Origin: Octopus vulgaris
Lineage: Eukaryota
Direction of reading: 5' to 3'
DNA: 64,000 nt
NCBI GenBank assembly: GCA_951406725.2
Contig: OX597823.1
Coordinates: 45,384,001 to 45,448,000, forward strand
How positions within the stretch are numbered: position 1 is the first letter of the stretch; each line of letters opens with the position of its first letter. Below, piece by piece: positions 2,719 to 55,537 of the stretch. The notes under the pieces were generated by a model. It was not told the origin of the DNA and searched no databases. It saw only the letters and a list, made by a program, of their open reading frames with translations. The translations under genes and the position numbers were made by a program.

Positions 2719-3105
2719 TCTTTATATATAAAAGTAAGGTTGTGTGTCTGTCTCCTACGATTTAGGTTCCTAAATACTCCCACATTTTGCGGTGCAGTTT
2801 AACCAAAACCAGGTATCTTATAGTCGTGATTCATACTGAGCCCTTCTGGGTATTAGCGCGCGTCTACGATGAGTCTACGATTTTAAAAATAATTTACCAT
2901 CATTTTTTTCCATTTTAATGCATTTTTTCGCTATTATATAAGGGAAGTAACTCTCTAAAAATGTCTACGATGAGTCAACGATTTTTAAAAAGATTTACCA
3001 TAATTTTTTTTCCATTTTTAATGCATTTTTTTGGCTATAACTCTCTAAAAATGCTTTATAGTTATTTCCCTTACAAACCCAAGCAACGCCGGGTGATACT
3101 GCTAG
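2719..3105 (+). mobile_element. Non-autonomous Helitron-like element
   Basis: Inserted A|TC...CTAG|T; starts TCTTTATATATAAAAG; GC-rich subterminal cccaagcaacgccggg then gatactgCTAG; internal tandem duplication. Confidence 0.72.
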
Positions 3106-3124
3106 TATATATATATACATATAT

Positions 3125-3618
3125 TGAGGCAAGAGAAATCAAAATCAAATTCGATGACTGGCATCCATGCTAGTGGAGCACTAAGAGTACCATCCGAGCA
3201 TGCTCGTTGCCAGAGCAGCAAACTGGCTTCCTTGCTGGTGGCACATAAAAAGCACCATTTGAGTGTGATCATTACCAGTGTCACCTTACTGACACTTGTG
3301 CCGGTGGCACATGAAAAGATATTCGAGTGAGGTCATTGCCAAAGCCTCTGGACTGGCTCCTGTGCAGGTTGCATGTAAAAAACACCATTTGAGCATGGCC
3401 ATTGCCAGTACCACCTGACTGGCCCTCATGCCAGTGGTACGTAAAAGCACCCACTACACCCTCAGAGTAGTTGACATTAGGAAGGGCATCAAGCTGTAGA
3501 AACTCTGCCAGATCAGATTGGAGCCCGGTGCAGCCATCTGGTTTGCTAGTCCTCAGTCAAATCGTCCAACCCATGCTAGCATGGAAAGCAGACGTTAAAC
3601 GATGATGATGATGATGAT
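3125..3618 (+). mobile_element. 3' UTR copy of the same (GAT)n-tailed retroposon
   Basis: Shares the tandem units and the ccaacccatgctagcatggaaagc..gttaaacgatgatg end. Other copies ~33752-34163(-), 39080-39900(+), 45440-45850(-), 53520-53820(-), 58030-58210(+), 61960-62128(+). Confidence 0.75.
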
Positions 3619-27230: not shown

Positions 27231-30200
27231 TTTGATAATGAAGAGGAGAGTAGAGATTTTATTCACATCCGAAAACCTCTACATATGTTTCAGCTGCAGT
27301 GACTGCACATTGCTTTGTATACAATTATGCTTTTTAGTTGTTCCATTTTCATCAAAGGGTTCATCACTCACAACGTTTTCAAAGTGAACTGATTCAAACT
27401 GATGCATCCTGCATCGATATTCAGTTAAAGGTAATAACATTACTATTTATATCCAATGGAATGCTGGTTTTATAATCACCTCTGCTTGTATTACAGTTGT
27501 AGGATAGTTTTAAAAATGTTTATTCAGATTTCAATTAATTCTAACAGTTTTGTTTACATGTTGCTGTATGGAGTACATTATTTATTTAGAGGTAATTTAT
27601 TAGGTTGTCAAGAAAGTTCTTGCGTTTTTAACCTTTAAGTTCAGATGCATATGTCTTGGCTCAAACAAAACTTTATTAATTAAAATAAACACCATCAGAA
27701 TCAACACACTTTTGCCAATGCGAAACAAGTTTATTTATGCCAGTAGCGTAATGATTCTGTGTTCTGGTGGCGATGAAGTTGTTGAAGGCGTGTTTGGCAT
27801 TGTCTTGGTTTTTTAAGAATTTCTCATGCAGGAAGTTGCCGAGATGCTTGAAAATGTGGTTGTCGGTAGGTGAGAAGTCTGGTGATTATGGCAGGTGAAG
27901 CAGAGTTTCATAGCCCAATTCGTTCAACTTCTATAGAGACAGCTGTGCGACCTGTGGCTGAGCATTGTCGTGGAGAAGAATTGGTCCTTTTCTATTGACT
28001 GATGCTGGCTGTTGTTGTTGGAGTTTCTTATGCATTTCATCCATTTGCTGACAGTACTTCTCCATCATAATTATTTCACTTGGATCCAAAGAACTGAGAT
28101 GGATGAGACCAGCCACAGACCACCAAACAGTCACTATGACCTTCTTTTGGTGCAACTTTGGCTTTGGGAAGTGCCTTGGAGCTTTAATGGCATCCAACCA
28201 CTGAGCTGAGCATCGCTGGTTGTAGTAAAGAATCCACTATTCATCACAAGTCACATTCCAGCTGTGAAATGGGTCATTCTTGTTGCGTAAAAGAAGGGAA
28301 GATGAATACCCATTTCTCAAGTATTTTTGTTTTTCCAATCTCTTTCAAGTGGTTGGAAATTGTTGTATATGTTATGTCTAATTCAGAAGCAAGCTCTTAA
28401 ACATTTGTGCATGGATTGGCTTTGACTAAGGCTCTTAGTTGATTGTTGTCAACATCCGATGGCTGACCACTATGCTTATCATCTTCAAGACTCTCATCAC
28501 TCCTATGAAATTTCTTGAACCACCATTGTGCTGTACATTCATTAGTGTTTCCTGAGCCAAATGTATCGTTGAAATCTTGAGCTGTTTCAGCAGTTTTTTG
28601 GCCTAGCTTGAACTGTAATAAGAAAATTGTGCGAATTTGCTTTTTATCCATGTTGTATTCACCGTTTCAGAAAAACAATGGCCTAATTATTCAAAAAGAA
28701 AAAGAGCAACATGATTAGATAGAACGAAAAACAGGCTTTAAAATGATATATAAAGTCAAAGTAATTTAATGAAAATTAATTTGAAAATACATCATTTAAA
28801 ATCAAAATTAAAAATTCCGCAAGAACTTCCTTGACAACCTAGTACTTATTTTGGGTTTATATCCTCAATCAATATTGTTATCATCATTATTATTATTATC
28901 ATTATTATTATTAGTAGTAGTATTAGTATAAATATCATTTATTTTTTTAATTTATTGTAAGTAGCATAGTTACTATAGATGATAAGTTGTGTTTATTTAA
29001 ATTGTTTAAAAGTATATTTTCTCAAGTGTGGACAACTTAAAGCCTGTTCCCATCTAGTGTTTAACAGTAAATTTGGAAATGAACATTTGGTACATTTTTT
29101 TCCACATTTTACAAGGTTTTGTATTATTAATTATTTCCTAACCAACCGAATATGCTTTGTTACAATCTTTTAGTGCCCAAATTAGTTTACTAAGGCTAGT
29201 AGTATTCATTTTGCCCCTATATCTAAACGAATTTAAATGATTGGCAATTCTTTGTTTAATATAACATGAGCTAATTCTGTATGGAAGTAGACCCTATACT
29301 CTGAGGTAACCTTACATCTGTATACAATATTTTAATACTTACAATTAGAGTTAAGCAGGCAAATACTGTTCCTTGAGCAATCGCATTTGATAGTTCTTTT
29401 ACTTACATTAATAGTTTCCTCTTCAGCTTCACTATCTTTTAAGCTATTACTCTTTCCCACATAGATAACATTCTGAGTACTGTGCTTTCTAGGATTCACA
29501 CCTTTGAGGATAATGCAGGAGTTTGTTTAAGTACCTTCCATTTTATTAGTTGTCAAACCATAGTTCCTATTCTGATACCTAGTTGGGTTACTTATGGTTT
29601 GGTCATCATGTTGGCATTATTGCTATTAATTGATCTATAATTGTTATTCTGTTTACTATTATTAAACTGGTTAATCTATTAGCCTTGTGTGCTGCTATAA
29701 TATGTGCTAGATTTCTGCTATTAGAAAAAGCTAGTCTAAATCTATGTTTATAAAATATTCTGTAGTATTTACTGTCTTTTGGAAAATGTTTAACCAATGC
29801 CAAATAGAATAATTTAGGTATATTGGAAATTATTTGTTTTCCAAAAGGAATTATATACCACTTGATATTGCTGGAAGTATCTATGTTATTGTGGTATGTA
29901 TTTCTACCTAAGCTTTTTGTGAAAGTGTATTACCTATTTACCTGGTTTTTATTCTGGCATTGGGTTTGTTTGCTGTTGTATTTGTCAGTTATTTGTGTAG
30001 TACTATTAGCAGAAATTAAATATTGGTTGCCTTCCCTATTTGAATGGGATTTCTTGTTAGGTCCATTCTTATCTAAGTTACTTAGTACTTTATTTGGCAC
30101 AAATTCATGTAAATTTTGATGAAATTGCAATGACTAGAATGTATAATTGTTTACAAAGCAAAGTGCAGTCACTGCAGTCAAAGCATATGTAGGTCAGATG

Positions 30201-51402: not shown

Positions 51403-51849
51403 AAGAGATAGCTATGACCAGTCTATGGGATTACTCTGGGTTTTATGTCCATAAAGTGCTTAGCTTTATGACATCTTTATGGACATGAGGCCCAGGGTAA
51501 CCCCACAGACTGGCCATAACTATCTATATCTAATTACTCTACTGCTCTATAAGTTAGTGTCTGCTTCTCTTTAGGATGTATGATTTACTGCCAAGCCTTC
51601 TTTTTTCTATCAAGGGTTTATATGCCCCTTTATTAGACTATTTTCCTTAGTAATTGTATAGTGATCGCCATAAGTTTTAAGCTTATACAGAAATACCATT
51701 ATTATTATTTACAGGATTGTAAAAACAGCACCATATAAAAAACCATTTACACCGAAAGCATATATATATATATATATATATAGTAGTAACAGAAAAAAGA
51801 AATTTTGATTATCCCTACGTGGAGATATATATATATATATATATATATA

Positions 51850-52550
51850 TACCAATTAAGGACTGAACACGAAAAGTGGACAGTCAACAGACGTCTATAT
51901 CTAGCATGTTGACTGTCCACTTTTCGTGTTCAGTCCTTAATTGGTATATATAAATATTTTAATCTTCGGATTCTTTTTAATATGCTAGACCACTGGTTTT
52001 AATTGACTAATATCAATTTCTACCCTTAATTAATTTTTAATATAAAATATATGTTCTTAAGCCGATAAATTGACTGCTGCTAATTATTAGCTGCTGGCTG
52101 GTTTTTCGGGTCTCAGCGCGCCAAAAGTAAAGGCATTTGAAAGATACATTCGAACTTAATCGGTTGTACTGTATGCATGCGAAACTCCGGTATCGTTTTT
52201 TGCATCTAGTCCAGCAAATTATGTTCATAACAGACTGTGCTGACGAAGTTACAGATATCCTTGTGATATTAATAACTGAAACTGATCGGTACACAGGTGA
52301 TTATTTCATTTCGTATATTTTCATTTGTCTTATTTATTGCTTTGGTTTGTGCTGAATTTTATTTTATTTGAGAACATAATCTTTGTGGAGAATGGCGATT
52401 TGACGTCTATATCTAGCATGTTGACTGTCCACTTTTCGTGTTCAGTCCTTAATTGGTATATATAAATATTTTAATCTTCGGATTCTTTTTAATATGCTAG
52501 ACCACTGGTTTTAATTGACTAATATCAATTTCTACCCTTAATAAATTTTT
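51850..52550 (+). mobile_element. Non-coding hammerhead-bearing element: 512-bp period direct repeat with short 5' inversion, (TA)n-flanked
   Basis: ~140-bp identical repeats start at 51890 and 52402 (gacgtctatatctagcatg...); 51850-51889 is the reverse complement of ~51908-51947; hammerhead at 52235-52296. Confidence 0.82.
52235..52296 (+). ncRNA. Type I hammerhead ribozyme (intact core)
   Basis: Stem I ctgtg/cacag; core CTGACGA 52240-52246; stem II agtta/taact with inner atatc/gatat hairpin; GAAA 52278-52281; short stem III with palindromic gatc loop; GUA cleavage triplet ending at 52291. Confidence 0.88.
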
Positions 52551-53129
52551 ATATATATATATAAATATATATATACAAATATGTATATATATGTATGTGT
52601 ATATATATATATGTATGTATGTCTATATCTATATATGTGTTTATGTATCTAGATATATATATATCTACATGTATATGTATGTATGTATCAATCTATCTAT
52701 CTATCTATATATATATATATATTAGGTAGAAAATATTTTAGTGGGGGAACGCATGTGTTTGGATATACACAGAAAGAGAAAAGAGATGAAAACACAAGAT
52801 TTGTTTTACAGAATTAAGGAGTATATTATAGTCATATCTTTATTATTTGGACTCTACTCCTTAGGCCTGTAAAACAAATCTGTGATTTTTCGTCTTTTCT
52901 CATTCTGTGTATATATATATATATATACAGTCCCCTCTCATCTCCTCTGTGAGTCCCAATATCTGTAGATCTTTTCTGATGTTATTCGCTATAGTAAAAC
53001 TGTTTGCAGTTATCCGATAACAACAAAATCCATCAACATGAATAGTCAACTAATGGCTGATACATGTTTTATCTATCCCAACACCCACCTCCTCCAAAAC
53101 TGAACAAACAGGAAAAGAATTCATTCTAC

Positions 53130-54885: not shown

Positions 54886-55284
54886 ACTCTCTTTACTCTT
54901 TTACTCTTTTACTTGTTTCAGTCATTTGACTGCGGCCATGCTGGAGCACCGCCTTTAATCGAGCAACTCGATCCCGGGACTTATTCTTTTGTAAGCCCAG
55001 TACTTATTCTATCGGTCTCTTTTGCCGAACCGCTAAGTAACGGGGACATAAACACACCAGCATTGATTGTCAAGCAATGCTAGGGGGACAAACACAGACA
55101 CACAAACATACACACATATATATATATATATACATATATACAACGAACTTCTTTCAGTTTCCGTCTACCAAATCCACTCACAAGGCTTGGTCGGCCCGAG
55201 GCTATAGTAGAAGACACTTGCCCAAGGTGCCACGCAGTGGGACTGAACCTGGAACCATGTGTTTGGTAAACAAGCTACTTACCA
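54886..55284 (-). mobile_element. SINE family A copy, ~90 nt downstream of the exon 2 donor
   Basis: Reverse-complement match with repeated (tactcttt)n tail. Confidence 0.85.
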
Positions 55285-55372
55285 CGAGGATAAGGACAAA
55301 GATTTTGTTACTGGTTACTGAGAATTTATCAAATTGCTCAAAAATTTGTGAAAAGAGAAAAAGAATCCTTAC

Positions 55373-55537
55373 CTTTTGACGGTCAGAAATTTCCAACAGT
55401 GCACCGAGGGACCACATCATGGCAAAAACTATGAGGTTGTCTAAATGAGTGTGTGTAATATCTTTACGATCTTCCTCACTAGGAATCAAGCCTTCAAGAA
55501 GATCAATTGCTTGGCGGATATAATTACATTCAAGCAG
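55373..55537 (-). CDS. DNAH5: Dynein heavy chain exon 2
   Basis: LLECNYIRQAIDLLEGLIPSEEDRKDITHTHLDNLIVFAMMWSLGALLEISDRQK; tctAG/GTaagg; 165 nt; carries the dynein F.x.WS.GA motif. Confidence 0.93.

Follow-up and report, generated by a model that had tools for sequence, protein, structure and literature searches.

The element at positions 51852 to 52551 of the window, the 64,000-nt stretch of Octopus vulgaris DNA analysed here, is very probably a 1.3-unit copy of an ORF-less non-LTR retrozyme of about 510 nt, whose reverse transcription and insertion into (TA)n were likely carried out in trans by a Hydra-type Penelope-like element (PLE) through its RT/GIY-YIG protein. The class of element and its PLE origin are already in print; what is new is the family itself and the insertion-signature evidence for PLE mobilisation. 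The initial annotation had opposed an independent retrozyme to a Penelope element. This proved to be a false choice, as the unit has no ORF and yet is inserted with a PLE signature.

The window copy and its genomic family

The copy lies between a left (TA)n tract (51825-51851), read from the flank as the insertion target, and a right TA/TATG microsatellite (52550-52722). It opens with an inverted 5' arm on the minus strand (51852-51889; unit positions 18-55), which ends at the 3' site A described below. This stretch is the 38-nt non-TA part of two inversion arms (51839-51889 and 51907-51957) that are 98% complementary, and the inverted and direct arms meet in the palindrome GACGTC. A complete unit of 512 nt and 33% GC follows on the plus strand (51890-52401), with longest ATG frames of 60 aa (+) and 63 aa (-), and then a partial second unit (52402-52551, plus strand; positions 1 to about 150), which ends at site B within the TA tract. 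The resulting direct repeat (51890 = 52402) is exact over 141 nt and does not extend to the left; over 150 nt, at a spacing of 512, the likeness is 99%. All of this agrees with the initial annotation, which had described a segment between (TA)n tracts with a 5' inversion of about 40 bp and a repeat of about 140 bp at a distance of 512 bp.

The window copy is intronic in a dynein heavy chain gene and antisense to it. Exons of axonemal type were found on the minus strand within window positions 35400-55550 (near 55300, 47580, 42371 and 35426), among them an exon in open frame at 55202-55534 (minus strand; Pfam Dynein_AAA_lid, E 6e-9). As it contains only one hammerhead, the copy could not itself release a monomer, and this together with its antisense intronic position makes it probably an inert dead-end product with no function of its own. 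Elsewhere in the window, a degenerate PLE remnant (29014-29860, minus strand) is kin to the 717-aa PLE family described below, with 31-52% identity in short pieces. A stretch at 28300-28700 (minus strand) resembles a Tc1/mariner transposase fragment, judged by eye.

In the genome searched (2.8 Gb in 227 contigs), the unit forms a dispersed family at more than a thousand places. A search with the window unit gave 1,547 candidates, and among the 40 that were scored, full-length copies are 89-99% alike. The nearest copies of the window element are 97-99% alike, in line with the young insertion that had been proposed. The 26-nt 3' tail motif has 1,417 exact matches in the genome (none for the control), and the hammerhead 5' core has 639 (7 for the control). 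Subfamilies are 72-99% alike, with unit sizes of 505-534 nt. The first 30 tail matches on one contig (C1), which were not picked by overall likeness, all belong to one unit family, most of them to older subfamilies.

Units are arranged head to tail in arrays of up to three per copy. Two or three hammerheads occur in one arm at no fewer than six loci (at least L007, L017, L022, L023, L028 and L115), of which L023 is a 3-mer running from site A to site A. The longest arm among the 74 insertions analysed below comprises three units in 1,537 nt, and adjacent hammerheads occur in at least two arrays among the first 100 of the 639 core matches listed. An ORF continuation was found in none of the 74 insertions, the upstream sequence being another unit or flank; the initial annotation would have given way to an ordinary Penelope pseudo-LTR (pLTR) had all copies been joined to an RT/GIY-YIG ORF. 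A tblastn comparison of three PLE proteins with the unit gave no match and no protein remnant, and the RT plus GIY-YIG ORF that marks an autonomous PLE is absent from inside the unit. The family has several of the features by which retrozymes are recognised: tandem hammerhead units that are protein-free, a GC content below 50% and a strongly self-paired unit of a few hundred nucleotides. The earlier description of the window segment as a retroposed copy of about 1.3 units of an ORF-less tandem hammerhead unit is thus supported.

Hammerhead structure and conservation

By sequence reading, the hammerhead core of the window copy consists of CUGACGA (52240-46), GAAA (52278-81) and GUA (52289-91), and this order (CUGANGA, GAAA, NUH) is that of type I. 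Stem I is formed by 52235-39/52292-96 and stem II by 52247-51/52273-77, while stem III has only 3 bp (A-U, C-G, U.G) with a GAUC loop. Including an extended stem I (52227-30/52301-04), the motif spans 52227-52304 on the plus strand. It is predicted to cut its own RNA after the A52291 of GUA. The short, near-palindromic stem III region (ACUGAUCGGU; 52281-52290, plus strand) is predicted to form a 10-bp self-duplex of -12.2 kcal/mol.

The loose core pattern occurs at chance level (11 matches versus 8.0 expected). The Rfam search suggested with the initial annotation came back blank for the window, with no hammerhead at the gathering score and none at E<=10, a match to the Rfam model being a library test and not a defining property. 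The reality of the motif therefore rests on covariation and the consensus fold. Weak miRNA-type Rfam matches were traced to the inversion hairpin and rejected. The local fold at the hammerhead is unremarkable in the window (z -0.8 and -1.6), and the lowest-energy fold of the window monomer is not the hammerhead (-15.3 versus -8.8 kcal/mol for the hammerhead).

Among 41 distinct hammerhead variants, chosen by a tolerant pattern, 96% of cells are paired and compensatory changes occur in 9 of the 18 pairs, whereas slid controls are only 21-43% paired. None of 500 shuffles reached the covariation score, which kinship among the sequences inflates, and the count of further pair types in the same variants shows no excess over shuffles. 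RNAalifold recovered stems I, II and III unguided from 26 full units chosen by BLAST coverage, together with an extension of stem I that carries compensatory changes. The 12 letters of the catalytic core are intact in 25 of these 26 units, even though six old full units share just 72-76% with the window unit. We conclude that the window hammerhead is real, on the basis of covariation and the unguided consensus fold, and that the complete type I hammerhead of the initial annotation, with its GUA, short stem III and GAUC loop, was read correctly. The same annotation had likened it to the minimal-stem-III type; stem III is indeed short, but stems I and II are extended in the family consensus, which brings the motif closer to retrozyme hammerheads than to minimal PLE ones. 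Stem III is often a palindrome, and six variants are predicted to form self-duplexes of -8 to -14 kcal/mol. This would fit cleavage as a dimer, by analogy with axolotl retrozymes (PMC7229834; here and below, published work is cited for excerpts of its text).

The whole 512-nt unit folds better than its shuffles, whether treated as a circle (z -4.6; 0 of 40) or as a linear molecule (z -4.7; 0 of 100). An old unit has a circular z of -4.3, and the opposite strand of the window unit one of -2.1. Both the hammerhead and whole-unit folding persist in subfamilies that differ by 25%, an argument for selection acting on the RNA.

Insertion signature and candidate helpers

The insertion signature was analysed in 74 distinct insertions out of more than 1,000, of which 44 were found through likeness to the window copy or neighbourhood searches and 30 through the tail motif, with duplicates dropped. 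The 5' ends are variable. In contrast, the 3' ends occur at two fixed sites, A and B, separated by about 90 nt, so that of the check on abundant copies with circularly permuted starts, the abundance was confirmed and random permutation was not found at the 3' ends. In the window copy, site A is the internal TATATATA (51945-51952) and site B is an AT-rich stretch at 52036-52044, both on the plus strand. One class of genomic copies stops at A and the other at B, and the two sites are the putative reverse-transcription starts 1 and 2, respectively. Between them lies the 'tail' of about 90 nt (51953-52035, plus strand), which is found at one end of inverted insertions. Loose TA ends occur at 51957 and 52044 in contigs of sequencing runs.

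Inversions were present in 41 of the 74 insertions. Thirty-five of them, including the window copy, are A/B, one is A/A, none is B/B and five are unclassified; picking by the tail motif, as for 30 insertions, disfavours the A/A class. TA flanks 69 of the 74 on one side or both, a count that is partly circular as site A is itself TA-like. The insertions thus carry the PLE signature, namely a (TA)n target, a truncated 5' end, an inverted 5' copy and a tail on one side. L1-type twin priming was rejected, and so was pure fold-back copying, as by arm coordinates each fits only part of the inversions. The sole A/A insertion (L022:968-1270 and 2901-3203) is part of a larger inverted duplication, which takes in flanking DNA. 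Different PLE-type elements are often found end to end in one (TA)n tract (L060, L188, L124).

Several PLE families co-exist with the retrozyme. A family encoding a 717-aa protein (L072, L135-L138) is very young and very abundant (19,772 candidates), and its 2,578-nt unit (L137) contains, in order, a hammerhead-like motif, A, tail, B and the ORF. Its inverted pairs are A/B in six of six cases, on our reading, and its hammerhead-like motif has CCGAAGA where CUGANGA is expected. A Hydra-type family encoding a protein of about 960 aa is also very young, with 40 of 40 scored matches at 100% rounded identity among 2,456 candidates. Its unit (L170, L172, L174, L210-L229) is about 5.6 kb with a long 3' UTR, and its hammerhead-like motif combines a palindromic CAGCUG with a stem II spanning about 90 nt. 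Both proteins carry the Hydra-clade motifs RWK/RWR, DKT, CxCx5C, CxxC and CxH (motif list in PMC8557442, as excerpted). In searches of PDB and Pfam, the full 717-aa protein was unrecognised, and its GIY-YIG part gave E 0.0035, short of the cut-off. A separate search for protein homologues yielded no named match.

A 781-aa family has DKG and Cx4CxxC and is Neptune-like according to the description excerpted from PMC8557442. Its copies (L187, L190, L198) end in (TA)n and have a minimal hammerhead-like motif with core UUGAUAA and the stem III palindrome CAUG. The fifth PLE family (L188:121-217, minus strand; L232-L246; 2,009 candidates) has a canonical hammerhead with stem III CGAUCG, A and B ends of its own and a tail about 100 nt long. 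In addition, a short repeat in a TA tract at about 1550-1750 of L172 has a minimal hammerhead (CUGACGA, GAGC/GCUC stem II, GAAA CG UA) and is possibly another non-autonomous family.

A parent pLTR was sought in five autonomous families, namely the 717-aa, ~960-aa and 781-aa families, an older Hydra-type set and the fifth, hammerhead-bearing family, and no homologous pLTR was detected in their 117 loci. In nhmmer comparisons with the unit, the best E among 100 PLE loci was 3.5, with L045, L060, L140 and L171 excluded as their flanks hold a retrozyme copy; 17 more loci gave as sole match an old copy of the retrozyme itself.

The A and B windows of the retrozyme gave their highest scores with the corresponding ends of the ~960-aa family. 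In the old subfamily, this score is reached by 0-1 of 2000 shuffles and by 1-5 of about 360 other TA-abutting windows, and for the young subfamily by 68 and 9 of 2000 shuffles, the windows being AT-rich, 24-28 nt long and chosen post hoc after inspection. The B windows score against the ~960-aa A end as well. We take this likeness as a lead only. Tentatively, and with slightly less than an even chance, the young ~960-aa family would be the likeliest helper.

Mechanism, alternatives and significance

In the mechanism that we propose, multi-unit source loci would be transcribed and the hammerhead would cut after GUA, likely as a dimer via the palindromic stem III or with the help of a protein. 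The released monomer may then be ligated into a circle, a step about as probable as its opposite. The PLE protein would nick both strands of a (TA)n tract and initiate reverse transcription once per strand, at A and at B, for which another PLE offers an in vitro precedent. Two 5'-truncated cDNAs joined head to head would give an insertion with one A end and one B end, and synthesis beyond one unit length would give the tandem.

Units that share an array show no consistent excess of likeness over units at other loci, so that arrays are no proof of a circular template. For the tandem form to last through subfamilies that differ by 25%, some means of regeneration would be needed, which a circle or template jumping would supply. 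The unit is covered, and the joint from 52401 to 51890 was found, in contigs of four sequencing runs, three guessed to be RNA and a fourth (X15) of unrecorded kind, taken as the DNA comparison. Since the joint is also present in X15 and is explained by genomic tandems, it has no bearing on expression or circles.

Non-LTR retrozymes have been described in coral, mussel and axolotl (Cervera and de la Pena 2020, PMC7229834), and in the excerpted text they resemble the octopus family in having tandem units that each carry one type I hammerhead, have a low GC content and no ORF and are strongly self-paired, in genomes where PLEs co-exist. Those of axolotl share the short stem III with a palindromic tetraloop. 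Published metazoan units are about 170-400 nt, whereas those found here are 505-534 nt, and the octopus arrays, known from genomic sequence, are short (three units or fewer) and dispersed in (TA)n. Animal retrozymes have been treated as non-autonomous PLE sequences by Li, Clavereau and Pollet (2026, bioRxiv 10.64898/2026.07.22.740005), whose invertebrates, as excerpted, are three insects and one anthozoan. Their work also concludes on PLE dependence and describes monomers, dimers and multimers, with a size range (51-972 bp) that includes the present unit. They draw on co-occurrence and pLTR homology in Xenopus, whereas we draw on insertion signatures, with pLTR homology not found.

Hydra-clade PLEs (Craig et al. 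2021, PMC8557442) are described in the excerpt with (TA)n targets, a hammerhead, 5' truncation, an inverted 5' copy and a one-ended tail, as here, but their tail is 30-40 nt against about 90 nt, and the retrozyme has no ORF. Two reverse-transcription starts also bound the tail of the Poseidon PLE of Anolis in vitro (Frangieh et al. 2024, PMC11167929, as excerpted), which cuts AT-rich DNA on both strands and whose hammerhead needs help to cut. Poseidon differs in being autonomous and in having its starts inside a stem-loop that is AC-rich and lacks homology with the target, while A and B are AT-rich and target-like. The excerpt of PMC8967140 does not mention ribozymes. In excerpted literature, mostly at the level of listings, on octopus hammerheads, cephalopod ribozymes and circular RNA, octopus non-autonomous Penelope elements and non-autonomous PLEs with tails in microsatellites, neither this family nor a tail signature on a retrozyme is described; Repbase, subscription papers and supplements lie outside the scope of this statement.

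Alternatively, the unit could derive from an unsampled or extinct autonomous PLE, as its detached pLTR or through internal deletion, and spread from linear multimeric transcripts with no circle and with a hammerhead dispensable for insertion. This overlaps with the retrozyme explanation and differs from it on origin and circle. The layout of the unit (hammerhead, A, tail, B, spacer) is that of the 717-aa PLE minus its ORF, and uncut hammerheads are read through in many copies. Xenopus retrozymes match PLE pLTRs (bioRxiv 10.64898/2026.07.22.740005), while hammerhead mutants of the anole PLE still insert and its main substrate is uncleaved RNA (PMC11167929), according to the excerpts. Against these points stand the lack of pLTR homology in the five families and of any protein remnant in the unit, and the maintenance of the hammerhead and of whole-unit folding across divergent subfamilies; on balance we regard this alternative as somewhat unlikely. 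That the window segment comes from an ordinary autonomous Penelope, as its 5'-truncated 3' end (a pLTR and part of a tandem), is very unlikely and already largely refuted: autonomous PLEs do share the inversion, tail and TA targeting (excerpt of PMC8557442; the 717-aa PLE), but in the 74 insertions all copies of testable length run upstream and beyond B into another unit, never into an ORF, and arrays reach three units. A satellite or MITE-like origin, with DNA-level amplification by unequal crossover or rolling circle and an incidental hammerhead, is scarcely plausible. Tandem copies and inverted arms are present and crossover growth of satellites is discussed in the excerpt of bioRxiv 10.64898/2026.07.22.740005, but the copies are dispersed and short with variable 5' and fixed 3' ends, folding is stronger on the hammerhead strand than on its opposite and the hammerhead carries compensatory changes.

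A bolder form of the retrozyme explanation, which we consider unlikely, is that a ribozyme-bearing circular RNA, not a pLTR remnant of any living element, parasitised a Hydra-clade PLE in several waves solely through short mimics of its two start motifs, each inverted insertion representing one A and one B start in a single complex. If this were true, a retrozyme-helper pair would have been named from its insertion signature, and the retrozyme would offer a minimal substrate for solving PLE integration.

The family shows that Rfam overlooks abundant animal hammerheads. Re-insertion of animal retrozymes has so far been inferred from co-occurrence and pLTR likeness. In the octopus family, a retrozyme with no ORF bears the two-start (tail) signature specific to PLEs, and the same genome holds young candidate helper proteins with open ORFs, which makes mobilisation testable with one RNA and three proteins.
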